The notes beneath the pieces are model-generated. The model worked only from the letters and a program-made list of their open reading frames with translations, was not told the DNA's origin and searched no databases. Source: Patescibacteria group bacterium (GTDB lineage Bacteria; Patescibacteriota; Patescibacteriia; UBA10025; JAHIVO01). Taken from it: a stretch of 64,000 bases of DNA. Positions 8,846 to 64,000 of the stretch are shown in pieces. The stretch is from contig JAZDEZ010000021.1 of the NCBI GenBank assembly GCA_043808365.1, positions 128,403 through 192,402 of the forward strand. The letters are read 5' to 3'. Position 1 is the stretch's first letter. The number at the start of each line of letters is the position of its first letter. Position numbers and translations under genes: made by a program.

Positions 8846-8853
8846 ACTGCTGT

Positions 8854-9063: not shown

Positions 9064-9075
9064 ATTTTAATTATG

Positions 9076-10248
9076 TTAATTAAGCGTGAGTAATTGCGGC
9101 TTGGCAATGAGGATGATTCCGAGCAATAAGATGATAATCCCGCCGATCAGGGTGGCGTACCGGCTGTATTTCCCGGTGCCGCCGGCCATTTTCATGGTCA
9201 TCATGGCGATGGCAAAAACGATCATGTCGTCGAGCATGAAAATGAAAATGTAGAGCAACAGCAGTCCGTAATACTGCCAGCCCGGCAGATCGTTGAGCGC
9301 CACGATTTGGGTGAAAATCGCCGGCAGGCCGGCCGAGCAGGCTAGCTCGATCAGGTTGACGATGGCCGCCAGAACGATAATGCCGCCGATGGCCAAGGGG
9401 AGGGATTTTTTTCTGACGATATCTTTCATGCGATCCAATATTTTCCGGCGCTGGGCGGGATTGGTCACTTCGCACGCGCCGGGGCGGGATTTCCAGAATC
9501 GCCGCAAGTAGTATATGCCGATGCCCAAGGCGACCAGGCCGATCAGTACCTGAACCCAGCGGACGACGCCGATGAATTTGAATAAATTGAACCAGGCCGC
9601 CAGGAACATGAAATAGACCAGTGCAGAAGAGGCGATGAAAATGGTCCCCAGCAGCCACATCCGGCGACGATCCTGCATGCCGATGAGCATGCTGATCAGC
9701 ATGACCAGCACCCACATGGCGCACGGATTGAACCCGTCGATAGCCGCCAGGACGACCGTGACGAATGGCAATGACACTGCCCGCGGATCCACCAGGCCGA
9801 TGAGCGGGATCCGGATTTTGTCCCCTGACGAGGCAGAATCATTGGTCGTCGGCTTTTGGTCCGCGTGTAGTTCCTTCTCGATCAGCGCCTGGATGTCAGC
9901 GCCGGTCGTGTCTGCCGAGCCGAACCCGACGATCATGTCCGATCCGATAAACGTAGCCGGTACGCCCGAGACTGCCTGTCCCCGTTCATTGGCAAAATCC
10001 TGGAGCAGGGCTTGGTTCCCTTCATTGTAATAGACCTCGTAGTAATTGATCTTGAGCTGCTCGCCGTACGTTTTGGCCAGATCAGCGAGGAATATTTTTT
10101 CTTTGGCGCAGTGTGGGCATCCGTCTCCCCAGAAAAAATCGACAGTCGCGGGAGTTATCGCCGCTTGAGCTGGCAGGGCAAAGGCAAACACCAAAAAGAA
10201 GCAGGCCAACAGGATATTTTTTTTAAAATAGTTCGGCATATGGTTCAT
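9076..10248 (-). CDS. thioredoxin-fold domain fused to a CcdA/DsbD-like thiol-disulfide transporter membrane domain
   Basis: Signal peptide, a WGDGCPHCAKEK CxxC motif, then about 6 TM segments carrying conserved Cys. Confidence 0.7.
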   Translation of the reverse strand: MNHMPNYFKKNILLACFFLVFAFALPAQAAITPATVDFFWGDGCPHCAKEKIFLADLAKTYGEQLKINYYEVYYNEGNQALLQDFANERGQAVSGVPATFIGSDMIVGFGSADTTGADIQALIEKELHADQKPTTNDSASSGDKIRIPLIGLVDPRAVSLPFVTVVLAAIDGFNPCAMWVLVMLISMLIGMQDRRRMWLLGTIFIASSALVYFMFLAAWFNLFKFIGVVRWVQVLIGLVALGIGIYYLRRFWKSRPGACEVTNPAQRRKILDRMKDIVRKKSLPLAIGGIIVLAAIVNLIELACSAGLPAIFTQIVALNDLPGWQYYGLLLLYIFIFMLDDMIVFAIAMMTMKMAGGTGKYSRYATLIGGIIILLLGIILIAKPQLLTLN

Positions 10249-21325: not shown

Positions 21326-21371
21326 CCCTGTCTGCCGTCTGCCTACCGGCAGACAGGGCAGGCAGGCGCCA
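21326..21371. repeat. perfect 12-bp-stem hairpin plus the 25-nt sequence repeated at 25893
   Basis: The hairpin is CCCTGTCTGCCG-9 nt-CGGCAGACAGGG. The sequence CGGCAGACAGGGCAGGCAGGCGCCA (21347-21371) is identical to 25893-25917. Confidence 0.85.
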
Positions 21372-28318: not shown

Positions 28319-28359
28319 AGGCAGACCTTAATATTTTTTATTACAAAAATCACCCCAGG

Positions 28360-28432
28360 GGTGGCTAGAGAGATTTGAACTCTCGTCACCGGTGCCACAG
28401 ACCAGTGCACTAACCACTGTGCTATAGCCACC
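28360..28432 (-). tRNA. tRNA-His (GTG)
   Basis: Cloverleaf read by eye with anticodon loop CTGTGGC, an extra 5' G(-1), T-arm GAGAG-TTCAAAT-CTCTC. CCA is not encoded. Confidence 0.9.
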
Positions 28433-33731: not shown

Positions 33732-33869
33732 TATTGTAATGAAAATAAAACCGCCCAGTCAGTCGACTGAGTGTTTTTGTAATATAAAAAGCCCCGTGTA
33801 AACTTTTCGTTAGAAGCGAGTTTACAGGGGGCCATGTGCTATTTGCAGGTGCAAACTTTATTAAGCTGG

Positions 33870-34341: not shown

Positions 34342-34418
34342 ATGTTAAAGATCCAACTCTTTTGTCGTACATTACTACTTACGAGGAGAAAATGCAAGGA
34401 AAATACAAAAACGCCCAG
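34342..34418 (-). repeat. 77-bp promoter/leader repeat, copy 1
   Basis: 76/77 identical to 35160-35236. The minus strand contains TTGCAT, an 18-nt spacer, then TAATGT. Confidence 0.85.
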
Positions 34419-34516
34419 CCATGCGGCTGAGTATTTTTTGTGTTAAATAAAAAAGCCCTCCTGAATCAGACACTGCAAAAGATTCAGAGAGGGCGTGGGC
34501 AATGTAGACGTTTTGT

Positions 34517-35159: not shown

Positions 35160-35236
35160 ATGTTAAAGATCCAACTCTTTTGTCGTACATTACTACTTAT
35201 GAGGAGAAAATGCAAGGAAAATACAAAAACGCCCAG
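35160..35236 (-). repeat. 77-bp promoter/leader repeat, copy 2
   Basis: See copy 1. It lies directly upstream of the 34863-35138 gene. Confidence 0.85.
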
Positions 35237-35257
35237 TCGTTCGACTGAGGGTCTTTG

Positions 35258-35341: not shown

Positions 35342-35593
35342 TTAGCTAGTTATAGCGTCTCGATATTGTCGTTTCAATAATCGCCTGCCTTCCGTTGTTT
35401 TAAGAAATCGTTCTCTGCGCTCGGCATCACTTTTTAATTGATACGCTTCATATCCGATTAATGTTAGTGGACGGTATGACCGAGTTGAAGTGACGTGGCC
35501 GCGTTGGTGTTCGCCATATCTTTCCTTCAGTCTCTGAGTTAGCCCTTTATAAATATTATTATTTGATAACCTTAAGAAATAGACGAAGTACAT
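35342..35593 (-). CDS. GIY-YIG nuclease-domain protein (UPF0213-like)
   Basis: 83 aa with YFVYFLRLSNNNIYKGLT...R..EH motifs. It ends 8 nt upstream of tRNA-Lys. Confidence 0.75.
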   Translation of the reverse strand: MYFVYFLRLSNNNIYKGLTQRLKERYGEHQRGHVTSTRSYRPLTLIGYEAYQLKSDAERRERFLKTTEGRRLLKRQYRDAITS

Positions 35594-36240: not shown

Positions 36241-36295
36241 GATTATTTTAATAAATATGCTGGTATCCCCACTTGTCCCGCCATTCGCTGCGCTC

Positions 36296-36463
36296 GGCGG
36301 GATTTTCACTTCGTTTTGAGAATCTCCGCCTCATGCCAGGGGCAGATGAGCCTCAGGCTCAAGAGGCGGACCCCGCCCTACTTTATTTATTTAATATTTG
36401 TGGCGGGGGAACCAAGATGTCTAGCTTCCGCCTTCGCCCTCATGCAGTTCGGGCTTCGGCGGA
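36296..36463. repeat. cluster of three or four GC-rich palindromic elements with TCCGCC...GGCGGA ends
   Basis: 36296-36330: GGCGGGATT...AATCTCCGCC. 36325-36370: TCCGCC...GGCGGA. 36427-36463: TCCGCCTTC-GCCC TCATGCAGTTC GGGC-TTCGGCGGA. Confidence 0.75.
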
Positions 36464-36503: not shown

Positions 36504-36578
36504 TGGTGCCCTCAGTAGGAGTCGGACCTACATTCTCAGCTTAGAAGGCTGATGCTCTATCCGTTGAGCTATGAGGGC
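36504..36578 (-). tRNA. tRNA-Arg (TCT)
   Basis: Anticodon loop CTTCTAA. The T-arm GTAGG-TCCGACT-CCTAC has C at position 55. CCA is encoded. Confidence 0.85.
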
Positions 36579-36604: not shown

Positions 36605-36655
36605 GCTCCGACGCTTTGGTCGGAGCCCCGACTATTACGTCGGGGTTGAACTATA
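36605..36655 (-). promoter_or_regulatory. tandem CCGAC hairpin leader module upstream of tRNA-Arg
   Basis: Plus strand reads GCTCCGAC-GCTTTG-GTCGGAGC, then CCCGAC-TATTAC-GTCGGG, then TTGAACTATA. The same layout occurs at 62874-62939. Confidence 0.6.
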
Positions 36656-55286: not shown

Positions 55287-56053
55287 CGTTTAAAAAAACG
55301 CTGGTCGCAGCCGCCCATGCGGCCGGACGGTTCCAGCTTAAGCATTTCGGCAAGCTGGGACATGTAACCCGCCATTTCAAGGCCCACCATGAGATGGTCA
55401 CATATGTCGATAAGCAGTCTGAACATAAGATAATCGGAATTATTAAGAAGCAATTCCCGGGGCACGCAATAATTTCAGAAGAGTCTCCAATGCAAAAACA
55501 TATTCGGGGCGAATTCACGTGGGTCATCGATCCGCTCGACGGGACGACAAATTTTGCCATTGGCAACCCCCTCTTTGGAGTTTCGATAGGAATTATAGAT
55601 GTGCGTGGGGCGTATGAAGGTGTGCTGTATTTCCCGGTCATGCGGAGATTGCTGTATTGTCGGCGCGGTCACGGTGCATATGAAAACGGCAGACTCGTCC
55701 ATGTATCGCGGAGCGGTTTGGCGGATTCCATCCTGTCAGTAAATTTTTCCCATAATATTCAAGCGTCCCGTCAGGCTATGGGCATCATGAAACAACTAAG
55801 GCCCTGCGTAAACAATATCCGTATCTTTGGATCAAGCGCTTTTGCATTCAGTTTGGTGGCAAATGGGGCAGTTGATGGGCTCATAATGGTCGGCACACAA
55901 CACCACTGGGATGTGCATCCAGGCATATTAATGGCTACGGAAGCCGGCGGTAAGGTGACGAATTTTTCAGGGAAAACCTGGGACATTAATGGGCGCGGTA
56001 TCATTATTTCAAACGGGAAAATCCATTCCAATCTCGTCAGGGAATTAAGGTAA
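55283..56053 (+). CDS. inositol monophosphatase family protein (SuhB-like)
   Basis: WVIDPLDGTTNF and WD motifs. Confidence 0.8.
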   Translation: MTFKKTLVAAAHAAGRFQLKHFGKLGHVTRHFKAHHEMVTYVDKQSEHKIIGIIKKQFPGHAIISEESPMQKHIRGEFTWVIDPLDGTTNFAIGNPLFGVSIGIIDVRGAYEGVLYFPVMRRLLYCRRGHGAYENGRLVHVSRSGLADSILSVNFSHNIQASRQAMGIMKQLRPCVNNIRIFGSSAFAFSLVANGAVDGLIMVGTQHHWDVHPGILMATEAGGKVTNFSGKTWDINGRGIIISNGKIHSNLVRELR

Positions 56054-56161
56054 GCACAATAAAAAAACAGGGTTCGAGTAAACCTTGCTTTTTTGGTGCC
56101 GTCCCTCACTTCATTCGGGACCACTGAAATTTGATTTTATTTAAATGCTGGAGGCCGGACT

Positions 56162-56197
56162 TCCGCCTTCCCTGAAGCAAGTTCAGGGTTCGGCGGA
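56162..56197. repeat. TCCGCCTTC...TTCGGCGGA palindromic element
   Basis: TCCGCCTTC-CCTGAAGCAAGTTCAGGG-TTCGGCGGA. It has the same ends as 36427-36463 but a different inner hairpin. Confidence 0.75.
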
Positions 56198-56210
56198 CAG
56201 GCGAACCGAC

Positions 56211-56296
56211 TGGTGCCGGGGGAGGGACTCCAACCCTCACAGCCTTGCGGCTACAGGATTTTAAGTCCTGCGTGTCTAGCATTCCACCACCCCGGC
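56211..56296 (-). tRNA. tRNA-Leu (TAA)
   Basis: Anticodon loop CTTAAAA, long variable arm, CCA encoded. The D-loop reads GAATGCTAGA and the T-loop TTGGAGT, giving C19 and G56. Confidence 0.85.
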
Positions 56297-56755
56297 CTAC
56301 GGCTTTATTATATCAAATAATACGATTCCTAGCGCTATAGCCACGTTTAGGGATTCTTTCTGGCCGTGCATGGGGATGTCAATGACTTTATCGCATTTTT
56401 TCAGGAGGCTGGCTGGCAGTCCCTTCACTTCGGCCCCAACCACGAGGGCGAGCGGGAATTTTTTCTTTAATCTGAAATATGGAATGCTTTTTTTGGACTG
56501 TTCCAAAGCTATAAGCCGTAATCCATAAGCTTTAAGTTTTTTTAGTAAGGCTGAAGTGCTCCTGATTTTTTCAAAAGGGACTGTTTTTTCGGCGCCCAGG
56601 GCAATCTTGTCGATTTTTGGATGAGGCGGTGACGGGGTAATGCCGCAAAGGAATATTTTTTTCACGCCAGCCGCGTCTGCCGTGCGGAAAATAGCACCCA
56701 CGTTAAACCGACTCCTGACGTTATGGAGGATGAGGACGACGTTTCTATTATGCAT
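56297..56755 (-). CDS. SpoU/TrmH-family RNA 2'-O-methyltransferase
   Basis: NVGAIFRTADAAG and SLNVAIALGIVL motifs. The stop abuts tRNA-Leu. Confidence 0.8.
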   Translation of the reverse strand: MHNRNVVLILHNVRSRFNVGAIFRTADAAGVKKIFLCGITPSPPHPKIDKIALGAEKTVPFEKIRSTSALLKKLKAYGLRLIALEQSKKSIPYFRLKKKFPLALVVGAEVKGLPASLLKKCDKVIDIPMHGQKESLNVAIALGIVLFDIIKP

Positions 56756-56790
56756 AAAGTTTGGTGAAGCGGGCCGTCTACGGCGAGCCT

Positions 56791-56816
56791 CGCTCCAGCG
56801 CTATAGCGCTGGAGCG
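56791..56816. repeat. perfect 11-bp-arm palindrome
   Basis: CGCTCCAGCGC-TATA-GCGCTGGAGCG. Confidence 0.85.
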
Positions 56817-56924
56817 GGTGAGTCCTTCGACTTCGCTCAGGATAAACTCCTTCGAACCGCCGACCTCTTCCCCCGCCTGCCAGAGCCTAGATTAATCCCG
56901 GTAAAGCTATTGTTGATTTGGAAA

Positions 56925-56996
<72 letters not shown>

Positions 56997-57015
56997 ATTT
57001 TTTCATTGGTTTTTA

Positions 57016-57079
57016 CTCTTGCCTTGGGGCGGCGGGCAGGTTGGCAAGGAAGCGTTCTACCGCTGAACTACTACTCTCC
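57016..57079 (-). pseudogene. diverged 5' fragment of a tRNA-Gly(GCC)-like gene
   Basis: Minus strand reads GGAGAGTAGTAGTTCAGCGGTAGAACGCTTCCTTGCCAA, then CCTGCCCGCCGCCCC, then AAGGCAAGAG. There is no T-arm or 3' acceptor strand. Confidence 0.7.
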
Positions 57080-57225
57080 AGATTTAGTAGAATATGTCAT
57101 TCCGTCATTATGCTCTTTAACCCTTTTCTTTAAGTCAGCAGTGAATCCTATATCTAGTGTTGTTTTTAAGACTAAGTATTACATATACGTAATACATATA
57201 CCATACTAATTTAAAAAATTCAATA

Positions 57226-57300
57226 TGGAGGCCACGGGCGGATTCGAACCGCCGCATAAGGGTTTTGCAGACCCTTGCCTTACCACTTGGCTACGTGGCC
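57226..57300 (-). tRNA. tRNA-Cys (GCA)
   Basis: Anticodon loop CTGCAAA and T-arm GGCGG-TTCGAAT-CCGCC. CCA is encoded. Confidence 0.9.
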
Positions 57301-57381
57301 TTATAAAAATTAGATTGTCAAAAGGTCTCTTGCTACTTGCCTGCCCCGCCGAATGGCGGGGGCTATCACGCCGTTTAAATT

Positions 57382-57572
57382 GGGTTTTGTCCCGCGCTCT
57401 AATATTATTTTACTGTTGCGCGGGATCCCGCCGGAATTTATCCCGTCGAATGACGGGATGGCGGGACAGACCCTTGCCTTACCACTTGGCTACGTGGCCT
57501 TACTAAAATTGGATTGTTAAAAAGGTTTCTTACTACTTGCTTGCCCCGCCGAATGGCGGGGGCTATCACGCC
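57382..57572 (-). pseudogene. truncated, insert-bearing upstream copy of tRNA-Cys with duplicated 73-nt upstream region
   Basis: Positions 1-34 (57467-57499, identical to the real gene) are followed by the 77-nt inserts, then CAAAACCC (57382-57389), after which similarity is lost. Confidence 0.8.
57390..57466. repeat. two tandem hairpin inserts with TCCCGC...GCGGGA ends
   Basis: 57390-57425: TCCCGCGC-20 nt-GCGCGGGA. 57426-57466: TCCCGCC-27 nt (containing the inner hairpin ATCCCGTC-GAAT-GACGGGAT)-GGCGGGA. Confidence 0.8.
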
Positions 57573-57642
57573 AATTGGCTATCGGGCTACATGTGCGTAT
57601 AGATATGGTATCAATCCAGGGGCACTTTATCAAGGGTTGGCT

Positions 57643-57671
57643 AAAAATAAACCCCGCTCTAGAAAGCGGGA
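57643..57671 (-). terminator. rho-independent terminator of the 3D-domain gene
   Basis: CCCGCT-CTAGAA-AGCGGG. The minus strand is followed by a T-rich run. Confidence 0.65.
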
Positions 57672-57685
57672 TTTGTTGGTATTTA

Positions 57686-58183
57686 TTAGAGTATTTCCAT
57701 CTTGATATGTCTGACCCCCCACTGTATTGCCAGTTCTCGGGAAGGCATCCAGATGTCCGCTCGTTTATTGAATCGGGCAGCCATCCGGTCTTCTACGATG
57801 AAAATTTTATCGCCAAACTGGTCAGGGAACCGGACTTTCGTACCGATCGGTAGGAAGTTAGCGGCAATAATACCATCACGCACTTGCGTACCCGATGCGG
57901 TGGTGAATGGCGTGCTTCCGCATTGGTCTGCTGTTGAGGAGTAGGCAGTAACGGTAAGATTGACCGTTTTTTTAGCAATTGGTTGTGGACGATCAGGGGT
58001 TTCTGGCAACCGGGCAACAACAGCCGGGGCGATTTGGACGGCGTCTTCTTGCTGGATGATTTTCATAGGCTCGATTGCTGCTTGCGCCAGCGCCAAATGC
58101 GGAAATGCAAATTCAAAAGTAAAGATAGATAGGACGATTATTGTTATGTATTTGATTTTTCTGAGAATAATTTGATTGATCAT
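57686..58183 (-). CDS. 3D-domain (MltA/RlpA-like DPBB) secreted protein
   Basis: Signal anchor, then VTAYSS....CG..P.TASG...R.G.IAAN.LP.GT... Confidence 0.75.
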   Translation of the reverse strand: MINQIILRKIKYITIIVLSIFTFEFAFPHLALAQAAIEPMKIIQQEDAVQIAPAVVARLPETPDRPQPIAKKTVNLTVTAYSSTADQCGSTPFTTASGTQVRDGIIAANFLPIGTKVRFPDQFGDKIFIVEDRMAARFNKRADIWMPSRELAIQWGVRHIKMEIL

Positions 58184-58283
58184 ACGCTTCGGTTTAGTAG
58201 TCTTATGTTATATTGGCTAATATTAGTAATTATTTGCAATTAATTTGGTAATTTTAGCTAATATTAGTTACAAAATAGGTATC

Positions 58284-58313
58284 AAAAAACACCCTATCAC
58301 AAGGGTGCTTTTG
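58284..58313 (-). terminator. bidirectional hairpin terminator after ddl
   Basis: A6-CACCCT-ATCACA-AGGGTG-CTTTT. Confidence 0.65.
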
Positions 58314-58412
58314 AAGGCGTATCTTAGCAGAACCTGGGATTATGTCAACCCCTCGACTTGAACCCCCTCGATTTTTTACTAGGGGGCTACGCTCGGGGCG
58401 ATGGGGCAAAGA

Positions 58413-59438
58413 TTAGTGTTTTTTTCGCTGCAGGGCAAGCTCGATGAGTTTTGTTATTAAATTTTTATATGACAGTCCGCTGGCCTGCCACATTTTCGGG
58501 TACATAGAAATGGCCGTGAAACCAGGGATAGTATTAATCTCGTTCAGGTATATTTTTCCGTTTTTTTTCACCAGGAAATCCACCCGAGCCATGCCTTCAC
58601 AATTGGCTATGCGATAGGCTTCCAGCGCTAGTCTTTTGATTTCCTTGATGGTTTTTTGGGGTAAATTGGCCGGGATTTCCGGATAGCTTTTCCCGTCAAT
58701 GTATTTGTCGTTGTAATCATAGAACTCGTTTGACGGCACGATGCGGCCTGGCTTGGCGATTTTGAAGTTATCAATTGAGTTTCCAGACACTGCCACCTCG
58801 ATTTCCAGGCAGTTTTCAACTGACTCTTCAATGATCACTTTCACGTCGTATTTACGGGCGAATTTGATGGCAGAACCCAGATCATTCCGTTCCTTTACTT
58901 TAGTAATGCCGACCGATGAGCCAGTACAGGCCGGTTTGACGAAGACGGGGTATTTCAATCGTAAGGCTTGAGTATGGTTTTTTTTAATTTCTTTCGTAGC
59001 CTGTCTTTGATAATCAATAATAACAAACTTTGGTTTTGGCAGGCCGTGGTATTGCATCAGCTCGTTGAATACCCCTTTGTCCAGACAAAGGGAGGATGAT
59101 AATACATCGGCTCCGACGAATGGAATATTCAACATGCGGAACATGCCCTGGATTGTGCCGTCTTCGCCGCCCTGGCCATGCAGGACGGGAAAGGCCACGT
59201 CGATCTGGCGGTTGAGCGTGTTCAGGTCGGCCGATTTCAGGTTTTTAAATTCTTTCTTTTCAACATTTACCAGAATTTTTATTCCTGTCCAGAACCGTCC
59301 TTTTTTATCAATCCAAAATTCCCGCACCTTGAATCGTTTACGGTCAATGGCGGCAATGACATTTTTTGCGGACATGAGTGAAACCTCGTGCTCCGGCGAC
59401 TGCCCTCCGAAGAAAATGCCAATAGTGAGTTTTTTCAT
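58413..59438 (-). CDS. ddl: D-alanine--D-alanine ligase
   Basis: GGQSPEHEVSL and ATP-grasp motifs (ARVDF, LNEINTIPG). Confidence 0.9.
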   Translation of the reverse strand: MKKLTIGIFFGGQSPEHEVSLMSAKNVIAAIDRKRFKVREFWIDKKGRFWTGIKILVNVEKKEFKNLKSADLNTLNRQIDVAFPVLHGQGGEDGTIQGMFRMLNIPFVGADVLSSSLCLDKGVFNELMQYHGLPKPKFVIIDYQRQATKEIKKNHTQALRLKYPVFVKPACTGSSVGITKVKERNDLGSAIKFARKYDVKVIIEESVENCLEIEVAVSGNSIDNFKIAKPGRIVPSNEFYDYNDKYIDGKSYPEIPANLPQKTIKEIKRLALEAYRIANCEGMARVDFLVKKNGKIYLNEINTIPGFTAISMYPKMWQASGLSYKNLITKLIELALQRKKH

Positions 59439-59455
59439 AGTTTTATGCCTGATAC

Positions 59456-59911
59456 TTATAGTTCTTCCTCGGAAATCACGCGGATCCCATTTCTTTTCAG
59501 TAATGCGGTAGTAACGCCGTCACCATTTATTAGTGTTCCCTGGAATGTCCCGTCATATATCTTGCCCGTACCGCAGGAAGGACTTCTTTGTTTCAAAATG
59601 GCCTCAGTGCAATTATACATCTTTGCCAGTTTAAGTGTTTCATTTGCGCCAGCCACAAAACTATCCGTAATATCAGTATTATCCGGTTCGATTACTTTTG
59701 CCTTTTTATCTAGCACGTCATTTCCATTACCTCCGGCTATTTCCGCATTCCGTCTAGGGGTTGGTTGTCCACCGAGCTGCTCAGGACACACGGGGATCAA
59801 CACTTCCTTATTTGCTAGCGTAATAACTTTTTCGTTTTTTTTCACCCCCCCGTCGTATCGGCAATTGACCCCTAATAGACATGCACTGCAAAGTTTCATA
59901 TTTTTATACAA
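59456..59911 (-). CDS. DUF523 (TudS/YbbK-like) protein
   Basis: SACLLGVNCRYDGG motif. Confidence 0.75.
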   Translation of the reverse strand: MYKNMKLCSACLLGVNCRYDGGVKKNEKVITLANKEVLIPVCPEQLGGQPTPRRNAEIAGGNGNDVLDKKAKVIEPDNTDITDSFVAGANETLKLAKMYNCTEAILKQRSPSCGTGKIYDGTFQGTLINGDGVTTALLKRNGIRVISEEEL

Positions 59912-59945
59912 AGCGGGTAGGTTTGTAGTAGTTTAATCCTTATTG

Positions 59946-60016
59946 AGCGGGTAGGGAGAATCGAACTCCCGGCAACAGGTTGGAAACCTGTGGTATTACC
60001 ACTATACGATACCCGC
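59946..60016 (-). tRNA. tRNA-Gly (TCC)
   Basis: Anticodon loop TTTCCAA and T-arm GGGAG-TTCGATT-CTCCC. CCA is not encoded. It is flanked by perfect 9-bp complementary leader and trailer (59938-59946 and 60017-60025). Confidence 0.9.
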
Positions 60017-60109
60017 TCAATAAGGATTAATTGTTGTAATGTATTTATGTAAAGGGAATCCCCGCCAAAGGCGGGTCCGCCCCCATTTGATTTGATATCG
60101 GTGGGCGGA

Positions 60110-60289
60110 GAACTCCCGGCAACAGGTTGTCCCGCAACGATGAGACGAACGAAGTGAGTCCATCCTGTTGCGAGGATCCACGCCCCGCCATTCGGCGGTG
60201 CGGGAGAAACCTGTGGTATTACCACTATACGATACCCGCTCAATAAGGATTAATTGTTGTAATGTATTTATGTAAAGGGAATCCCCGCC
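60110..60289 (-). pseudogene. upstream pseudo-copy of tRNA-Gly(TCC) with a 76-nt insert in the anticodon and a lost 3' end
   Basis: An exact 84-bp repeat (60206-60289 equals 59983-60066) covers the leader plus tRNA positions 1-35. A 76-nt insert at 60130-60205 (TCCCGCA...TGCGGGA) follows, then positions 36-55 (60110-60129), then the unrelated hairpin 60076-60109. Confidence 0.85.
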
Positions 60290-60363
60290 TACCTACCTTA
60301 CAGCAGTAAGGTGGGCGTGGCACCTTGGGAGGAAAGTCGTTTAGAAAATCTTGGAGGGTAATG

Positions 60364-60705
60364 TTACGGACGCCAAAGGTATTGTGTAAGGTCAATATAG
60401 TAATTTCCTTGCCTCATTGTAACCTCAACCCCCTCTTTTTTCAAGAGTTCGGCCTGGAGATTTTTAGAGTGTTCTTGGCAGGTGGTGCTGATTCGACCCT
60501 CCCGGTTTATGATGCGCTGCCAGGGGATTTCCTGAAGTTTTTCGTCTGGCAAGACGTGCAAAGCCCAGCCGACCATGCGAGCGGCGCGCGGGGAGCCGAG
60601 TAGCGCGGCAATTTGGCCATAAGTAGCGACTTTTCCTCTTGGTACGCGCCTGACTAACGCGTAGACGTCGGTGAAAAAATTTTTCCTATTTTTTCGTAAT
60701 GGCAT
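60364..60705 (-). CDS. MGMT-family DNA-binding protein, probably alkyltransferase-like (ATL) without the active Cys
   Basis: VPRGKVATYGQIAALLG helix-turn-helix region. IPWQRIIN stands in place of the PCHRV active site. Confidence 0.7.
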   Translation of the reverse strand: MPLRKNRKNFFTDVYALVRRVPRGKVATYGQIAALLGSPRAARMVGWALHVLPDEKLQEIPWQRIINREGRISTTCQEHSKNLQAELLKKEGVEVTMRQGNYYIDLTQYLWRP

Positions 60706-61477
60706 GGATGAGTTTGATGGTATATGTGTCTGACCACGGCTTCAGGCCGTCCAAGAACGTCTTGCGCCCATTTTGGGATTGGCGGACAATCTTCCTGCCC
60801 ACGGATACGAACGCCTGAAATGTTTTTTTATCTTTCGGCGCTGATGCCGCTAGTAGTTTATAAAATTGGATTTTATCGAGGTTCACCATAGGTTTACCTG
60901 ACCGGATGGGATAGCCGACGTATGCCTTGATGGTTTTTTTACCAGCGATAGCGGCCAGTGTGGTGCGGCGCATGCCGTCGAAAAGGCGTAGCGAATGTTC
61001 GTGCCTGTCGAAAAAGACGAACACCGGGTGGTGGTCGCGTTCCGGTCGCGGCTGCAGATTGGGCATGTATTTTTTAAAAAATGCACGGTGGCCATGAAAG
61101 TATTCAGCGAATTCGTAAAAATTCCGGTGGCAGGCTTGGATAACTTTATCTACTTGTTGCGGGTTAAAACCGGTCATGGTCAGGTCAGAGATATTCCTGA
61201 CTTCCAGGCGCCATTCGTAGGTTGGGTCGGTTAATAATCGATAGACCCACTTTACCCGCCAACCCTCGGCAATGGCCGAAACTAGCAGCCAGTAGTGATG
61301 CAGGCCGTCGCGTTTGATGAAATTATTGACTGACCGTTTCATGAGACGGCGGAAGTCGGCCCGCCGGATGTCGCGGAAGATTTTCAGGAATTCGTGGTAT
61401 AAAAACTGGTTCGCCATGGCCGTGGGCGGTACGTGGCGACGTAGTGTTTTAATCGGCGGGGCAATAAGTTTTTGCAT
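60686..61477 (-). CDS. hypothetical protein with a possible ParB/Srx-like DGxxR motif
   Basis: 263 aa. RLFDGMRRTTLAAIAG resembles the ParB-like nuclease DGHHR segment, which is weak evidence. It overlaps the downstream ATL gene by 20 nt. Confidence 0.35.
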   Translation of the reverse strand: MQKLIAPPIKTLRRHVPPTAMANQFLYHEFLKIFRDIRRADFRRLMKRSVNNFIKRDGLHHYWLLVSAIAEGWRVKWVYRLLTDPTYEWRLEVRNISDLTMTGFNPQQVDKVIQACHRNFYEFAEYFHGHRAFFKKYMPNLQPRPERDHHPVFVFFDRHEHSLRLFDGMRRTTLAAIAGKKTIKAYVGYPIRSGKPMVNLDKIQFYKLLAASAPKDKKTFQAFVSVGRKIVRQSQNGRKTFLDGLKPWSDTYTIKLIHAITKK

Positions 61478-61515
61478 GTCGATGGTTTATTGTTCTCCTC
61501 CATCATCTGCTACAT

Positions 61516-62700
61516 CTAATCTGACCAGGGGGTGGCCGTCGGTGAGTCTTCGTGTTTTTTTGGAGATTTGGCCGTTTTTAATTTTTTGTCTATTTGTTCG
61601 AGGACGGAGGCCATCTGTCCAACCTCATTATTAGGGAGTGTTTCGGTAGTTGGTTCATAATGACCAGCTTCAATATGTTGGGCCATCAGTAGGAGTTCTT
61701 TCATCGTGCGTGTTATTCGGCTACTCATCCAGAACGCAAATCCAGTCACGGCCCCCATGACGCCAAGCCCGGTAAAGACATATACCCAACCCAGATCATC
61801 GACTGGCTTCGTTACTTCATCCTCCATCATTTCCACCAGAAAACACCATTGTTGCGACTCTACATATCCGTACCCGCCGATAATAATGTTATTATTGGAA
61901 TTTTTAAAACGCGTCAGTTTTTCGTCGTGCGATTCGACATCGTTCGTGCCCGTACTATATTTTTTTAAATCCGCTGAGCAGTTTGTGGTATTGGGATTGC
62001 TCACTCGTTCAAATAATGCCTGGTTAGTAAACCGTCCAGTCGTCAAACGCTGGCCTTCCTTGTTGATCAGGTAAGATTCCCCGGTTTCTCCAAGGGCGCG
62101 AGAATCAGTGACAATATCGGAAATTTTATTGAGGCGGAAACGACTGACAGCGACTCCGATAACTTTTGTATTATTTGTGATAGGGACGGCAACATTTATA
62201 TCTACTTCACTGGCGTTGGTGGAGTTGAGATATGCGCCTGGAATATAAGGCAGGGATCGGCCGTTGAGGAATTCTTCGGATTTTGACAGGTCTCCGCCGA
62301 GCGAAGTATTGAGGAATGATGAGGCTATGAGGGTTCCATTTGAGTCTAGAATATAAATTTCTATCAAATTATCGATAAGCGAGAATTTATTTTTAAGCAG
62401 GTAAATGGACAGTTCATTATTGCTGCAGGGGTTGGCAGCATGACCGTTTTCGGAAAGGCAACCTGAAATATATTCGTCACTTGCGGTTAGTTTTGTAAAG
62501 TTTTTAATTTCGCTAAGGTACGTTTCGATGTGTTCGGATCGTTCATTAATAATGACGCCCAACTGCTTAGACTGAGAGATTTTAATATCAGCTCGTAGCG
62601 CTCCCATGCTGATATATATTGCCGCACTAGTCACAATGGCAGCAAAAATACAAATTGGCAGAACAATACGAAATGTTAGGTGTCCTGTGCGAATTTTCAT
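61516..62700 (-). CDS. membrane sensor-like protein: Cache-type extracytoplasmic domain plus HAMP, no output domain
   Basis: TM1, an ectodomain of about 270 aa, TM2, then a HAMP-like helix and a short charged tail. Confidence 0.55.
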   Translation of the reverse strand: MKIRTGHLTFRIVLPICIFAAIVTSAAIYISMGALRADIKISQSKQLGVIINERSEHIETYLSEIKNFTKLTASDEYISGCLSENGHAANPCSNNELSIYLLKNKFSLIDNLIEIYILDSNGTLIASSFLNTSLGGDLSKSEEFLNGRSLPYIPGAYLNSTNASEVDINVAVPITNNTKVIGVAVSRFRLNKISDIVTDSRALGETGESYLINKEGQRLTTGRFTNQALFERVSNPNTTNCSADLKKYSTGTNDVESHDEKLTRFKNSNNNIIIGGYGYVESQQWCFLVEMMEDEVTKPVDDLGWVYVFTGLGVMGAVTGFAFWMSSRITRTMKELLLMAQHIEAGHYEPTTETLPNNEVGQMASVLEQIDKKLKTAKSPKKHEDSPTATPWSD

Positions 62701-62775
62701 AATTATTGAGATTATTTGTCGGGGTGCCTGGCCCCGGATCTAGTCCGGGGGAACCGGGAACCTCTCTGCCCTATA

Positions 62776-62849
62776 TCGGGGATGCGAGACTCGAACTCGC
62801 GACCTCCTGCTCCCAAAGCAGGCGCGCTAGCCAACTGCGCTAATCCCCG
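62776..62849 (-). tRNA. tRNA-Pro (TGG)
   Basis: C1:G72 pair, anticodon loop TTTGGGA and T-arm GCGAG-TTCGAGT-CTCGC. CCA is not encoded. It is flanked by GCCCTATAT and ATATAGGGC. Confidence 0.9.
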
Positions 62850-62873
62850 ATATAGGGCGGGACGCTCTAGCTA

Positions 62874-62939
62874 ATCCCGACGTCCGAAATAAAAATAATT
62901 GAGTCGGGATCCCGACCATAGCGTCGGGACTGAACTACA
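62874..62939 (-). promoter_or_regulatory. tandem CCGAC hairpin leader module upstream of tRNA-Pro
   Basis: Plus strand reads ATCCCGAC-21 nt-GTCGGGAT, then TCCCGAC-CATAGC-GTCGGGA, then CTGAACTACA. Confidence 0.6.
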
Positions 62940-63201
62940 CCCCGTTAGAAATTTTAGAATAATTCTTAAGCCTGTTTTTTAAAAAGCGTTTGCCCATTCC
63001 AGATTTTCAATACTTTTCTCGAGCCCGTGCGTCAGTTTCATTCCCGCAAGCCTCATAGTATGCCAGGATCATGGGTAAACGCAACCTAGTTGAGTAAACT
63101 TTGCCAGAATTATGTTCTTTCACTCTATTTTGTAAATTATTTGAATAACCAGTATAGAGTCCTTTATCCTTTTTACTTAACAATACGTATGTATAATACA
63201 T
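62935..63201 (-). pseudogene. GIY-YIG nuclease-domain gene with in-frame TGA
   Basis: MYYTYVLLSKKDKGLYTGYSNNL..R..EHN...REKY-TGA-KSGMGKRFLKNRLKNYSKISNGV*. The TGA at 63007-63009 is where the paralog at 35342 has Leu. Confidence 0.7.
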
Positions 63202-63217
63202 AAATTTCTAACGGGGA
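62940..63217. mobile_element. 278-bp unit made of the GIY-YIG ORF bounded by 15-bp inverted repeats
   Basis: CCCCGTTAGAAATTT at 62940-62954 has its reverse complement AAATTTCTAACGGGG at 63203-63217. The core CCCCGTTAGAAA matches the 4572-4679 element. Confidence 0.55.
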
Positions 63218-63224
63218 CACCCCG

Positions 63225-63596
63225 TTATTTTTTATATATTTTTTCATTTGTCCGGTAGCCATCATCTTCTGCCCAGACCAGGTACAGACGTTTGGCGAAG
63301 CCGCCCTTACGTTTCATATTCTTTTTTAGTTCGTACCGGATGCAAGAGGGCTTGATCTTTTTGTATCGACGGATCGCTTTCAGCACTTCGTAGATGTCGG
63401 CAAGTTCGGAAGTTAGTTCCTGCCTGTTTTTGGTGGCGAGCAAGCCGGATGCTTCCTCACCTACCTTTTTATACAGCTCTGTCTCAAATTGCCTCAAGGA
63501 CAGTTTTTTTACAAAGAACTGCGCTCCCTTTGTACTAATTATGTGAGGAATCCGGTCGCGCACTAGCTTGTGGTAGTAGATCTTTTTCATTGGCAA
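63225..63596 (-). CDS. MazG-superfamily NTP pyrophosphohydrolase-like protein (phosphoribosyl-ATP PPase-like)
   Basis: YHKLVRDRIPHII N-terminal motif and an EE..E acidic helix. Confidence 0.6.
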   Translation of the reverse strand: MPMKKIYYHKLVRDRIPHIISTKGAQFFVKKLSLRQFETELYKKVGEEASGLLATKNRQELTSELADIYEVLKAIRRYKKIKPSCIRYELKKNMKRKGGFAKRLYLVWAEDDGYRTNEKIYKK

Positions 63597-63656
63597 AATA
63601 AGCGGTTAATGTCCACTATATAATAACATGGCTCTTTTGTTCTTGGAATGGGAAGG

Positions 63657-63728
63657 TGCCGAGGGCCAGAATCGGACTGGCGACGCAAGGATTTTCAGTC
63701 CTTCGCTCTACCACTGAGCTACCTCGGC
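63657..63728 (-). tRNA. tRNA-Phe (GAA)
   Basis: Anticodon loop CTGAAAA. The T-arm GCCAG-TCCGATT-CTGGC has C at position 55. CCA is not encoded. Confidence 0.85.
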
Positions 63729-63764
63729 ATAAAAAACCTCGGCACGTGAAGAAAAATATTTAAT

Positions 63765-63860
63765 GATTTTCAGTCCGGAGACCTGCCCCGCACACGAGCG
63801 CAGTGAGTGTTGCGGGGGTCTACCACTGAGCCTGCCTGCCGGCAGGCAGGCTACCTCGGC
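63765..63860 (-). pseudogene. insert-riddled 5' fragment of tRNA-Phe
   Basis: GCCGAGGTAGC, then [CTGCCTGCCGGCAGGCAGG], then CTCAGTGGTAGA, then [a roughly 39-nt insert with CCCCGCA...TGCGGGG arms], then CCGGACTGAAAATC. Similarity then ends. Confidence 0.7.
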
Positions 63861-63897
63861 GGGATCACCGGCATAAGCGAGTATTATTTTTACCAAC

Positions 63898-63974
63898 TGG
63901 TGGGGACGAGAGGAGTTGAACCTCTGACCTTCACAATGTCAATGTGACGCTCTAACCAACTGAGCTACGTCCCC
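63898..63974 (-). tRNA. tRNA-Val (GAC)
   Basis: Anticodon loop TTGACAT and T-arm AGAGG-TTCAACT-CCTCT. CCA is encoded. Confidence 0.9.
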
Positions 63975-63980
63975 GTGAGC

Positions 63981-64000
63981 TGGTGGGCGACCCAGGAGTT
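63981..64000 (-). tRNA. 3' end of another tRNA, cut by the window edge
   Basis: Minus strand ends ...CTCCTGGGTCGCCCACCA, which is a T-stem, acceptor strand and CCA. Confidence 0.6.

Follow-up and report, generated by a model that had tools for sequence, protein, structure and literature searches.

The DNA analysed here, referred to as the window, is a stretch of 64,000 nt from a Patescibacteria contig, and the locus under study lies at positions 59912-60289, where it is read on the minus strand. Its gene neighbours in the window comprise MGMT-like, 2-thiouracil desulfurase, Ddl and dCache/HAMP genes, together with a number of unknowns; exact-sequence look-ups with the adjoining Ddl and desulfurase proteins returned no match. 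Loci from three relatives at the same Gly(UCC) site (L001, L002 and L003) were used for comparison, and the loci retrieved amounted to 1.5 Mb in total. ARAGORN and Rfam agree on a single intact tRNA-Gly(tcc) at the locus (59945-60016, minus strand), and Rfam at gathering scores returned tRNAs only. Around this live gene lie the pieces of a second, outer copy, interspersed with hairpins. In the 5' to 3' order of the minus strand, the features are the following:

60240..60289, minus strand: leader copy (50 nt) ahead of the outer tRNA copy, 100% identical to 60017-60066
60206..60239, minus strand: outer tRNA positions 1-35, part of the exact 84-nt repeat
60130..60205, minus strand: insert I, 76 nt, TCCCGCA...TGCGGGA, at 35/36 of the outer anticodon (sequence and fold)
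60110..60129, minus strand: outer tRNA positions 36-56, exact 20-nt repeat of 59963-59982
60076..60109, minus strand: H1 hairpin, TCCGCCC...GGGCGGA, after the TTC of the outer T-loop (fold z -3.14)
60061..60075, minus strand: H2, small GC hairpin, CCCGCC TTT GGCGGG (read in the sequence)
60056..60060, minus strand: GATTC, remainder of the T-loop (positions 57-61) of the outer tRNA (read in the sequence)
60031..60055, minus strand: putative GIY-YIG ORF vestige with leader, start codons and stop, CCTTTACATAAATACATTACAACAA (alignment)
60017..60030, minus strand: leader arm of a 14-bp inverted repeat, TTAATCCTTATTGA (repeat search)
59945..60016, minus strand: live tRNA-Gly(UCC), inner copy (ARAGORN; Rfam tRNA 63.3 bits)
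59933..59946, minus strand: trailer arm of the 14-bp inverted repeat, extending the acceptor stem, TCAATAAGGATTAA (repeat search)
59912..59921, minus strand: outer tRNA 3' relic, end of the T-stem and acceptor 3' strand, CCTACCCGCT (read in the sequence)

What lies upstream is the original resident gene for tRNA-Gly(UCC), now dead and broken up. Its pieces and the inserts follow one another in the order nt 1-35, insert I, nt 36-56, H1 and H2, GATTC, the live-tRNA cassette and, last, the former 3' end. An earlier note on this DNA had reported a tRNA-Gly(TCC) with an exact 84-nt direct repeat (59983-60066 and 60206-60289), composed of a 50-nt leader and tRNA positions 1-35 (35, in standard numbering, being the second base of the anticodon), and had placed a 76-nt element with the ends TCCCGCA...TGCGGGA within the anticodon of the upstream copy, between nucleotides 35 and 36. 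The repeat search confirmed the former, and the latter holds as well, the boundaries of the insert falling unambiguously and exactly between the two positions. The remainder of the upstream copy differs from that first description. The 20-nt piece which follows the insert (60110-60129, repeated exactly from 59963-59982) was thought to end at position 55; its last letters are the TTC of the T-loop, and it reaches standard position 56. The hairpin at 60076-60109 had been taken as a replacement of the T-loop and the 3' strand, but it is inserted, as is the second hairpin at 60061-60075. Nor were the T-loop and the 3' strand lost: GATTC (60056-60060) follows the hairpins, and CCTACCCGCT (59912-59921) survives past the live gene. 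The outer T-arm is therefore broken at two points 5 nt apart, by the hairpins after TTC and by the cassette after GATTC. Once the inserts are left out, the pieces of the window also rebuild a tRNA-Gly in silico, and GATTC is required for the rebuilding. The notion of a decayed upstream copy with a loop-aimed insert is supported by the comparative data, both here and at tRNA-Cys, for which the same architecture had been claimed; however, the Gly copy is not merely truncated. Three interruptions divide the outer gene, whose 3' end is found past the live one, an arrangement which is nested and not tandem.

The conserved Gly site is polymorphic among the relatives, empty in L003 and filled in the window, L001 and L002, the only three genomes that carry the nested locus. 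In L003 a single plain tRNA-Gly(tcc) is flanked by the MGMT-like gene and ddl. The same place in L002 is occupied by outer positions 1-56, two hairpins, GATTC, the cassette with the live tRNA and then TCCCTACCCGCT (9842-9853), an exact 12-nt match. This 3' relic completes the outer gene, and the insertion is clean, with no nucleotide lost or duplicated; without its inserts, the L002 copy is called by ARAGORN as a full tRNA-Gly with 1 mismatch to the live gene. The L002 hairpins differ from those of the window. The gene neighbours of the L002 locus are GT2 and peptidase C39 genes, and a 79-nt relic of the 3' end of the ancestral MGMT-like gene is found beside a foreign copy and the GT2 gene. 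In L001 the 3' counterpart, CTATCCGCTCCA, lies directly ahead of ddl, at the place that corresponds to the end of the intact tRNA of L003, and the outer acceptor 5' strand has been lost. Homology-facilitated illegitimate recombination after DNA uptake was considered as an origin of the locus and rejected, as it leaves a clean two-sided insertion within a tRNA unexplained; it may contribute to relic formation in general.

The 50-nt leader copy before the outer tRNA is found in the window only, and in L001 and L002 the inner leader bears no relation to the sequence that precedes the outer copy. Exact identity over 84 nt is likewise restricted to the window among the compared genomes, and it ends exactly where insert I breaks homology. 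The most likely source of this identity is a gene conversion, of recent date, by which the live gene overwrote part of the relic. Moreover, since the tRNA-derived parts of the relic are at least 95% identical to the live gene in all three lineages, gene conversion would need to have occurred repeatedly.

The live tRNA-Gly(UCC) has the same sequence in the window, L001 and L002, and its CCA is not encoded. The arms of its 14-bp inverted repeat lie within a perfect inverted repeat of 21 nt (59933-59953 with 60010-60030), and the leader arm (60017-60030) overlaps the vestigial TAA stop codon. The leader-trailer duplex of the live gene folds with a z of -5.97. Pairing is kept in L002 through four compensated changes (TTAAGTCACATTGA / TCAATGTGACTTAA), and leader-trailer pairing which abuts the tRNA is also present at His, Arg and Pro. 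A sigma-70 scan of the duplicated leader yielded no convincing promoter, and the folding of the whole locus region reaches a z of -7.9.

Intact arrangements with comparable parts were found elsewhere. The window contains two intact GIY-YIG ORFs (35342-35593 and 63007-63201), and homologues of the first of these, which encodes 83 aa, were recovered at 9 distinct loci in which a complete tRNA adjoins the ORF stop, its start falling from 22 nt before to 10 nt after that stop; the 155 nt which separate ORF and tRNA in L091 are a scaffolding run of N. In most of the loci read (L089, L092, L094, L096, L097, L099 and L100) a partial copy of the same tRNA, broken in a loop by a hairpin or hairpin pair, lies 5' of the ORF, and L095 features the hairpin pair with a relic that is short and only possible. 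The interrupted loop is the T-loop in L089, L092, L094 and L099, the anticodon at 35/36 in L100 and the D-loop in L096. The GIY-YIG proteins are UPF0213-like, about 64-103 aa in length, and consist of the catalytic domain only, without the DNA-binding domains of characterised homing endonucleases; cleavage by them is putative. The hairpin pair shows clear covariation, with 97.8% of cells paired, 6 double-sided changes and 0/500 shuffles as high. When a covariance model of the pair (R1), built from other genomes only, was applied to the window, its nine best matches, the first hairpin of insert I among them, all fell in tRNA relics or in the GIY-YIG leader. The nested unit of GIY-YIG ORF, hairpin pair and tRNA is a grouping defined here and not a published family. 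The COG2827 RNA motif, which gave a 14-bit match in a permissive Rfam search of the locus whose matches were all at chance level, was discarded as an identity for the hairpins, as the hairpin pairs that precede real GIY-YIG ORFs miss the COG2827 family.

The Gly(UCC) locus shares with these units a loop-broken cognate tRNA upstream and a complete tRNA of the same anticodon downstream, as well as the geometry of hairpins followed by GATTC. The hairpin-pair model matches the H1 and H2 region of L001 with 23.4 bits (E 0.0015), and in the window it matches weakly both H1/H2 (E 2) and the first hairpin of insert I (13.9 bits, E 0.17). The L001 orthologue of H2, CCCCGTCGGATGACGGGG, agrees at 17/18 positions with the second hairpin of the GIY-YIG element of L100. 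None of the three genomes with the nested arrangement (the window, L001 and L002) has a GIY-YIG ORF at Gly(UCC). The stretch formed by H2, GATTC and the vestige aligns to the pre-ORF stretch and first codons of the tRNA-Lys GIY-YIG ORF of the window (score 29, 0/200 shuffles as good), and the L001 cassette aligns to the same tRNA-Lys element (score 32, 0/200 shuffles as good). The spacing from GATTC to the tRNA at Gly(UCC) is only 37 nt. The body of a GIY-YIG ORF appears to have been deleted here, down to the start and stop codons, a reading based on about 35 aligned nt. The 3' arm of H2 forms the beginning of the 84-nt repeat, and H2 scores as a terminator-like site. H1 is identical between the window and L001 at 32/34 positions (94%), as opposed to 50% at the four-fold degenerate sites of ddl, which suggests either a present function or a recent exchange.

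Insert I is composed of two tandem hairpins, 60177-60205 (TCCCGCA..GCGTGGA) and 60130-60176 (TCCTCGCAAC..GTTGCGGGA), and its fold of -38.2 kcal/mol (z -3.96) was equalled by 0/200 shuffles. Its ends pair together and would lengthen the anticodon stem. The earlier note had raised the matter of further copies: the insert occurs once in the window (0 matches in 100 shuffles), and the 1.5 Mb of loci hold no second copy, apart from a 16-nt sub-hairpin common to the tRNA-Cys relic, present in 3 copies against 0.06 expected. L001 has a diverged insert of 60 nt at the same 35/36 site and L002 has none, which suggests a later arrival. The interior of the insert is not conserved and evolves about as fast as neutral sites. 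Taken alone, insert I is a neutral scar in a dead gene, and we infer that it is a solo hairpin pair of the GIY-linked family, without present function.

Nested relics are not limited to this locus. The genes for tRNA-Pro, Gly(GCC), Cys and Phe, in the window and the related genomes, are likewise bordered by nested relics that stem from another allele. For Pro, Cys and Gly(GCC) this divergence between inner and outer allele is strong, which implies that the inner genes are not local copies. The GIY-YIG ORF before tRNA-Pro is present in the window and missing in L001 and L003. Across the Patescibacteria loci, 17/53 tRNAs have a same-strand partial copy within 350 nt (effectively 16/52, as L091, one of the 17, is a scaffolding duplicate), in comparison with 0/7 in other loci. 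Furthermore, TCC..GGA hairpins of the strict form, TCC(C)G(C/A)C, occur 10 times in the window against 0.7 expected, all of them at most 300 nt from tRNA genes, and the loose form (one mismatch, any stem) showed no enrichment over shuffles. At the tRNA-Cys of L002, a 17-nt duplicated 3' end surrounds a 91-nt insert in an attL/attR-like manner. Two further repeats of the window proved unrelated to the Gly locus: a 97-nt repeat 3' of tRNA-Lys (34342, 35160), which is a duplicated terminator/promoter region of small membrane-protein genes, and a repeat at 21340 and 25886 made of terminator-like hairpins.

The Gly(UCC) locus is probably a layered fossil of tRNA-gene replacement, left in a Patescibacteria chromosome as the remnant of an element combining a GIY-YIG ORF, hairpins and a tRNA. 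Its hairpins and cassette would be the remains of the element type that is intact elsewhere in Patescibacteria. Such an element would combine, in order, a conserved, covarying hairpin pair placed in a loop of the targeted tRNA, a further 5-10 nt of that tRNA, a short leader, an ORF and a tRNA, where the ORF would encode a GIY-YIG nuclease of about 85-100 aa and the tRNA would be complete and share the anticodon of the target. By this means the resident tRNA, of which there is a single copy, would be put out of action and a substitute provided; the cell would then be unable to lose the element, and the dead pieces would decay or be overwritten. Points that speak against this reading are the missing GIY-YIG ORF at Gly(UCC), the weak matches of the window's H1/H2 and insert I to the hairpin model, the near-identity of H1 between the window and L001, the repeated gene conversion that it would require, the missing DNA-binding domains of the GIY-YIG proteins, and the number of genomes with the nested Gly locus, which is three. 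More tentatively, the unit may be a selfish element, made of a minimal GIY-YIG gene, a hairpin pair and a tRNA, which lands precisely in a loop-coding part (D-, anticodon- or T-loop) of the resident tRNA gene of the same anticodon; where a genome has one copy of each tRNA, its host could not shed it. Repeated rounds of this kind would leave tRNA relics in layers like those of an onion, together with solo hairpin pairs of the insert I kind. The mechanism of mobility is presumed.

Other explanations of the locus can be weighed against the same observations. A plain tandem duplication followed by decay, with unrelated terminator- or REP-like GC hairpins gathered by chance and no tie to GIY-YIG, is in keeping with the exact 84-nt repeat, which resembles a recent event, with the terminator-like H2, with the weak matches of the window's H1/H2 and insert I to the hairpin model, and with the missing nuclease ORF. 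It is unlikely, and already disfavoured by the nested reconstruction, since duplication does not produce an outer 3' end that lies past the inner gene and completes the outer copy exactly; moreover, the outer and inner leaders are unrelated in L001 and L002, the excess of strict hairpins is found entirely near tRNA genes, and the cassette aligns significantly to GIY-YIG pre-ORF regions. It is also quite unlikely that the relic and its hairpins constitute a selected functional leader with a role in transcription, processing (RNase III or RNase P entry) or precursor stability. The near-identity of H1 beside far more diverged neutral sites, the 14-bp leader-trailer helix whose pairing is kept through four double changes, the similar pairing at His, Arg and Pro, and the strong folding of the region would all fit such a leader. 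However, conservation does not extend to H2, the outer 5' end or the interior of insert I; the 5' strand of the outer acceptor is gone from L001, insert I is absent and the hairpins differ in L002, and plain flanks surround the same tRNA 5' half in six other contigs. A functional role could hold for H1 and the inverted repeat, which would leave the nature of insert I unchanged.

The locus could also descend from a tyrosine-integrase element of the 'tRNA-dependent lysogeny' type, which split the host tRNA, did not rebuild it and carried its own tRNA-Gly; the carried tRNA, now essential, would have been spared by the genome reduction that deleted the rest. The T-loop and the anticodon loop are classic integrase sublocations, and the duplicated 3' end around the insert at the L002 tRNA-Cys fits such an origin, but it is very unlikely at Gly(UCC): no integrase or phage genes were found at or near the nested loci read, a megablast of 55500-64000 against phage records gave no match, a scan of viral contigs did not find the tRNA, the L002 insertion has no duplicated crossover core, and the intact relatives of the cassette bear a GIY-YIG ORF and no integrase. 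That insert I is an intron, or the locus a split tRNA gene, so that the upstream copy is expressed and the insert removed, is highly improbable, and the earlier suggestion of splicing finds no support. Position 35/36 is indeed a reported group I site in Patescibacteria tRNA-Asn and tRNA-Asp (PMC13011429), and the paired ends of the insert extend the anticodon stem. Against this, the insert measures 76 nt and a permissive Rfam search of 59850-60400 (E up to 10) yielded no group I or ribozyme match; the 5' exon ends in C (...TTTC) and the insert in A (...GCGGGA), and not in U and G; and by inspection and folding a 4x3 internal loop separates the two junctions, between the anticodon stem and the terminal stem of the insert, in place of a bulge-helix-bulge with its two 3-nt bulges around a 4-bp helix. 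The host copy is further broken in its T-arm by H1/H2 and the cassette, so removal of insert I would yield no complete tRNA. An intact gene lies 190 nt downstream, and the insert-bearing copy is the sole gene in 0/6 of the other contigs with this tRNA 5' half. The chance that mis-assembly created the repeat, an artefact contemplated in the earlier note, is close to negligible. The exact 84-nt identity in the window only would agree with it, but unique sequence (I, H1 and H2) separates the repeats, the same order of parts recurs in two independently assembled genomes (L001 and L002), and one of these two contigs is also present, with both copies, in the JGI metagenome collection (L088).

The remnant of a GIY-YIG, hairpin and tRNA element has partial likenesses to several known systems, and nothing relevant on nested tRNA relics, or on GIY-YIG with tRNA in Patescibacteria, was present in the papers searchable. 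Phage T4 SegB is a free-standing GIY-YIG homing endonuclease gene located in a tRNA gene cluster (PMC2330249). In both cases a small GIY-YIG gene lies among or against tRNA genes, with presence/absence polymorphism and apparent co-replacement of neighbouring tRNA alleles; the polymorphism expected of a homing element is observed at the Gly locus and at the tRNA-Pro ORF. Unlike SegB, the ORF described here is catalytic-domain-only, abuts or overlaps the tRNA 5' end and is preceded by a conserved hairpin pair, and the unit sits inside the cognate resident tRNA with pieces on both sides, in a cellular chromosome and with a nuclease that is putative; Gly(UCC) itself no longer has the ORF. The tRNA-dependent lysogeny of actinobacteriophages involves a tyrosine integrase, an attP/attB core and a whole prophage (PMC10865867), whereas the inserted DNA here amounts to ~130-450 bp and features no integrase, phage genes or duplicated core. 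Islands and prophages in tRNA genes restore the 3' part of the gene and shift the 3' fragment to their far end (Islander, PMC4383910). They share with the present loci the tRNA gene targets, the break points in the anticodon loop and T-loop, and the partial tRNA copy beside an intact one, but here a complete new gene lies between the old 5' and 3' pieces and the large relic is the 5' part.

The tRNA group I introns of Patescibacteria, inserted at 35/36 with U and G as end nucleotides (PMC13011429), occur in the same phylum and at the same unusual position as insert I; the latter, in contrast, measures 76 nt, is without the core (~200 nt or more) and resides in a dead, multiply interrupted copy. 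In CPR rRNA genes, short non-intron inserts have been reported, as well as GIY-YIG ORFs in non-intron inserts (PMC11270868). By their description these resemble the inserts seen here, being shorter than 200 bp, ORF-less, non-intron, and positioned in structural RNA genes at stem-loops, either at the tip or at the base. They are found in functional rRNA genes, whereas the present ones lie in tRNA genes that have been replaced and are linked to a substitute tRNA that is brought along. Palindromic repeat elements include mitochondrial GC clusters and double-hairpin elements. REP/BIME palindromic repeats, associated with RAYT transposases, are another such class (PMC3733652). Both groups, like the present hairpins, are small and GC-rich, recur in nested and tandem arrangements, and keep their stems by compensatory change. 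Unlike REP/BIME, the copies here are few and diverged, no GTAG/CGTC tag is seen, and a GIY-YIG ORF and no RAYT is associated with them; in the window the hairpins are confined to tRNA genes and relics, and insert I is unique.

The arrangement appears to be a compact tRNA-targeting mobile unit which brings its own replacement, with a minimal GIY-YIG gene and a hairpin pair in place of an integrase. The logic of targeting a tRNA gene and carrying its replacement is already known from integrating islands and from tRNA-dependent lysogeny. For annotation, it follows that partial tRNA matches beside real tRNAs in these genomes may be structured relics, and a possible parallel exists with the unexplained short inserts in the rRNA genes of the same bacteria. 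The nuclease, the hairpin and tRNA gene DNA together offer a testable system. If true, the proposed replacement would explain why very different alleles of the same tRNA are found in close relatives, and would give the UPF0213-type GIY-YIG proteins, which abound in Patescibacteria, a candidate role for the first time. It would moreover account for the fast turnover of tRNA alleles and for the tRNA pseudogene debris in these reduced genomes.

A single intact tRNA-Gly(tcc) is present in the window, at 59945-60016 on the minus strand (ARAGORN; Rfam 63.3 bits), and a repeat search of the window returned two exact direct repeats, one of 84 nt (59983-60066 and 60206-60289) and one of 20 nt (59963-59982 and 60110-60129). 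The neighbours are ordinary chromosomal genes, encoding trigger factor, Ddl, SpoU, an MGMT-like protein, a 2-thiouracil desulfurase and a dCache/HAMP protein. The anatomy of the locus is nested, the live gene lying within a broken outer copy.

Parts of the tRNA-Gly(UCC) locus, in order along the minus strand
leader, 50 nt, and tRNA positions 1-35
60205..60130, minus strand: insert I, 76 nt (TCCCGCA...TGCGGGA)
minus strand: tRNA positions 36-56, the last bases being TTC of the T-loop
60109..60076, minus strand: hairpin H1 (TCCGCCC...GGGCGGA)
60075..60061, minus strand: hairpin H2 (CCCGCC TTT GGCGGG)
minus strand: GATTC
minus strand: 25 nt, between GATTC and TTAATCCTTATTGA
minus strand: TTAATCCTTATTGA, directly before the live tRNA
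59945-60016, minus strand: live tRNA-Gly
minus strand: TCAATAAGGATTAA, directly after the live tRNA
minus strand: 11 nt, between TCAATAAGGATTAA and CCTACCCGCT
minus strand: CCTACCCGCT, the last piece

Insert I occurs once in the window (shuffles gave no matches) and folds into two tandem hairpins (-38.2 kcal/mol, z -3.96). The repeat search, the reading of the minus strand, this uniqueness and this fold bear out the repeat and 76-nt insert described in the earlier note, whose basic reading of the locus was correct and whose finding is real. Its 20-nt piece ends at tRNA position 56 rather than 55, and the hairpins, taken there to replace the 3' part of the gene, are instead inserted into the T-loop. 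The check it proposed for other genomic copies of the insert yielded none beyond the one in the window, nor any in 1.5 Mb of fetched loci.

Relatives were located by a Ddl search of contigs with one genome per species, which gave three syntenic Patescibacteria genomes, L001, L002 and L003 (Ddl amino acid identity 80%, 78% and 75%), all with the same tRNA order as the window. Four-fold degenerate sites of ddl are 50%, 42% and 34% identical to the window, respectively, so that unconstrained DNA is expected to be near unrecognisable between these genomes. L003 has one plain tRNA-Gly(tcc), directly after the MGMT-like gene and directly before ddl. At the same position L002 has tRNA positions 1-56 without an anticodon insert, followed by two hairpins that differ in sequence from those of the window, GATTC, a 32-nt leader and the live tRNA, which is flanked by TTAAGTCACATTGA and TCAATGTGACTTAA; six nucleotides further on comes TCCCTACCCGCT. 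Joining the three outer pieces of L002 restores a complete tRNA-Gly called by ARAGORN, with one mismatch against the live gene and no nucleotide lost or duplicated: the insertion was precise and loss-free. The outer pieces of the window also join into a tRNA-Gly, with two changes in the 3' strand of the T-stem. L001 shares the window architecture, with a 60-nt insert at 35/36 that resembles I only at its ends and in a central GGATCC; H1 is identical between the two at 32 of 34 positions (94%). The outer 5' acceptor strand has been lost in L001, where the remaining 3' piece, CTATCCGCTCCA, lies at the point at which the L003 tRNA ends. The locus is thus polymorphic for presence and absence, and the upstream copy is the ancestral gene, inside which the live gene is nested.

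Comparison of the four genomes therefore gives a three-step order of events. The hairpin pair and the cassette holding the live tRNA entered the T-arm in a step common to the window, L001 and L002; insert I would then have entered the anticodon loop of the dead copy in the window and L001; lastly, and in the window only, the outer copy came to match the live gene with its leader exactly over 84 nt. In the outer copy this stretch has one end exactly at I and starts mid-H2, H2 being complete only at the inner copy, and the identity points to recent gene conversion from the live gene to the relic. The L002 interval 8474-9600 contains an MGMT-like gene of foreign origin, a GT2 glycosyltransferase gene in reverse orientation and, beside them, a 79-nt relic of the 3' end of the ancestral MGMT-like gene, which shares 71% identity with the newcomer; in this lineage, relics of part of a gene adjoining its replacement are thus not confined to tRNAs.

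The position of I is one at which group I introns occur in Patescibacteria, but those introns have U before them, G as their last nucleotide and cores of full length (PMC13011429), whereas the 76-nt insert has C before it and A at its end. A permissive Rfam scan of 59850-60400 matched no intron or ribozyme, only the tRNA; the junctions of I are opposed across an internal loop without a bulge-helix-bulge; the copy hosting it has a second break in the T-arm; and all six further contigs found in a metagenome scan for the tRNA-Gly 5' half carry plain single genes. On these grounds an intron was rejected, and I is a scar. It most likely has no function at present. Divergence in its interior is close to that of neutral sites, and its L001 counterpart folds no better than shuffles (z -0.8). 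H1, conserved as it is, and a 14-bp helix between the leader and trailer of the live gene, whose pairing is kept through four double changes, stand apart from I and may serve expression or processing of the live tRNA. Leader-trailer pairing of 7-14 bp directly against the acceptor stem (duplex z -2.7 to -6.0) is found at four tRNAs of the window and is absent at its seven others; it would embed the tRNA in a long precursor helix or, in DNA, form terminal inverted repeats.

tRNAs of the window with leader-trailer pairing
28358-28431: tRNA-His
36504-36578: tRNA-Arg
59945-60016: tRNA-Gly
62775-62850: tRNA-Pro

Two small GIY-YIG ORFs (Pfam PF01541) lie in the window, the second of which is missing from the corresponding interval of L001 and L003.

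GIY-YIG ORFs of the window
35342-35593, minus strand: ends 8 nt before tRNA-Lys
63007-63201, minus strand: ends about 60 nt before a tRNA-Pro relic

The GIY-YIG protein is closest to the uncharacterised UPF0213 proteins. Searching for homologues gave 125 Patescibacteria proteins of comparable size, and genomic contexts were fetched for nine distinct loci. All nine have a complete tRNA, for Arg, Lys, Ser-GGA, Ser-CGA or Gln, whose first nucleotide lies -22 to +10 nt relative to the ORF stop. The ORFs, of 64-103 aa and comprising the catalytic domain only, sit just upstream of the tRNA, share its strand and abut or overlap it; this arrangement was seen for the window ORFs and in L089, L092, L094-L097, L099 and L100. 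The anatomy of the Gly locus recurs at different tRNAs and in different genomes: most loci read have, upstream of the ORF, a partial copy of the same tRNA with a conserved hairpin or hairpin pair in one loop, and in L095 the pair stands beside what may be a short relic. Consensus sequences are (C/T)CCGGTCATYCGACCGG for the first hairpin and GCCCnGnC-GRAT-GnCnGGGC for the second; 5-10 nt more of tRNA follow, then a short leader and ATG.

Sites of the hairpins in the partial tRNA copies
T-loop: L089, L092, L094, L099
anticodon 35/36, the site of I: L100
D-loop: L096

The hairpin pair covaries, with 97.8% of cells paired and six pairs altered on both sides (0 of 500 shuffles equally high). A covariance model was built from six pairs, none from the window. 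All of its nine best window matches fall at the tRNA-Lys GIY-YIG leader (E 6e-4), at relics of tRNA-Cys (E 0.003-0.06) or at insert I, in its first hairpin (13.9 bits, E 0.17), and in L001 the model scores highest on H1+H2 at the Gly locus (E 0.0015). The region from H2 through GATTCCCTTTACATAAATACATTAC aligns with the window's tRNA-Lys element (GATTCCCTTAACAGAAAAATATGTAC) over its hairpin, its leader and its initial codons, with a score of 29, and its L001 counterpart with 32, each unequalled in 200 shuffles; L001 H2 matches the second hairpin of L100 at 17 of 18 positions. What is left in the cassette, ATA CAT TAC ... AAC AAT TAA, looks like start and stop codons from which the ORF body is gone. 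On the basis of about 35 aligned nucleotides, the cassette is plausibly an ORF-deleted member of the GIY-YIG group.

Similar relics occur at other tRNAs. As the earlier note had proposed, tRNA-Cys shares the architecture: in its upstream relic, position 34 is followed by a tandem of two hairpins (57390-57466, z -7.2). Relics of a second Cys allele, with a hairpin in the D-loop, are also present, and the combinations of the two alleles differ among the four genomes. These very different alleles interchange among close relatives, each beside relics of the other (window 57226-57572; L001 14525-14599; L002 11800-12060; L003 6828-6902); the allele GGCGTGATAGCC... has an unusual T-loop, TGCAATT instead of TTCGAAT, and in L002 the final 17 nt of tRNA-Cys are duplicated around a 91-nt insert. 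At tRNA-Pro (62775-62945 and about 62690-62775), the allele intact in L002 and L003 survives as a relic on either side of a different live allele. The D-loop of the relic holds two tandem TCC..GGA hairpins (62875-62929), and the T-loop of the relic a further one; the live allele, flanked by CCCTATAT/ATATAGGG, is unlike those of L001-L003. tRNA-Gly(GCC) and tRNA-Phe follow the same pattern. The Gly(GCC) relic, an allele intact in L001 and L003, flanks a different live gene in two pieces (56810-56880 and 57041-57085), its 5' part reaching the anticodon loop and its 3' part carrying a 30-nt T-loop insert. The Phe relics lie in several shells between tRNA-Val and tRNA-Phe (63729-63897; L001 5733-5943 and 6017-6190, with a tRNA-Val relic too; L002 150-440), with D-arm hairpins at the same site whose sequence differs between genomes.

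The window has 10 hairpins of the strict form TCC(C)G(C/A)C...GGA, where shuffles give 0.7; every one of them lies within 300 nt of a tRNA gene, although that distance takes in just 9% of the window. A crude test with k-mers found a same-strand partial copy no more than 350 nt away for 17 of 53 Patescibacteria tRNAs in the loci (effectively 16 of 52, L091 being a scaffolding duplicate) and for 0 of 7 tRNAs from other bacteria. GC-rich TCC..GGA hairpins also stand beside tRNAs without an obvious relic: three consecutively downstream of tRNA-Arg and one upstream (36276-36463, 36607-36624), and one after tRNA-Leu-TAA (56162-56197). A 97-nt repeat (34342-34438 and 35160-35256, 92% identical; a third, weaker copy near 33750-33780), comprising a terminator hairpin and a promoter-like stretch, sits ahead of successive small membrane-protein ORFs downstream of tRNA-Lys and appears unrelated to the tRNA relics. 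The window ends within a tRNA-Ile that in L001 comes after the 16S rRNA gene (window 63975-64000; L001 3691-5570), which places the relic-rich tRNA cluster just downstream of the rRNA operon.

As a mechanism, the GIY-YIG protein may cleave tRNA genes at, or close to, positions that code for loops; repair would then use an element-bearing donor, with the hairpin pair marking or shielding the cut site 5-10 nt from the position of the ORF-tRNA cassette. The cassette could then not be lost, because the sole working tRNA of that kind comes from it, whereas the ORF would be free to decay; a solo insert such as I would result where the hairpin pair was copied and the cassette was not. The known systems nearest in function are T4 SegB, a homing endonuclease of the GIY-YIG type within a tRNA gene cluster (PMC2330249), and tRNA-dependent lysogeny, where the host tRNA is disrupted by an integrating phage that supplies its own (PMC10865867). 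The break points resemble the sublocations that integrases use within tRNA genes, but the layout is reversed and has neither an integrase nor a duplicated core. As a possible parallel, rRNA genes of CPR bacteria harbour short inserts at the tips of stem-loops that contain no ORF and are not introns, and likewise non-intron inserts that encode GIY-YIG proteins (PMC11270868). Searches of open-access papers did not turn up nested tRNA relics, or a unit of GIY-YIG ORF and tRNA, described from Patescibacteria, a scope that is no proof of novelty. The Gly locus is probably a fossil of such an element; that the full selfish nuclease-plus-tRNA model is both correct and new is a tentative proposition, somewhat short of even. 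The value of insert I is that it exposes a recurrent and apparently undescribed route of tRNA-gene invasion and replacement in these bacteria.
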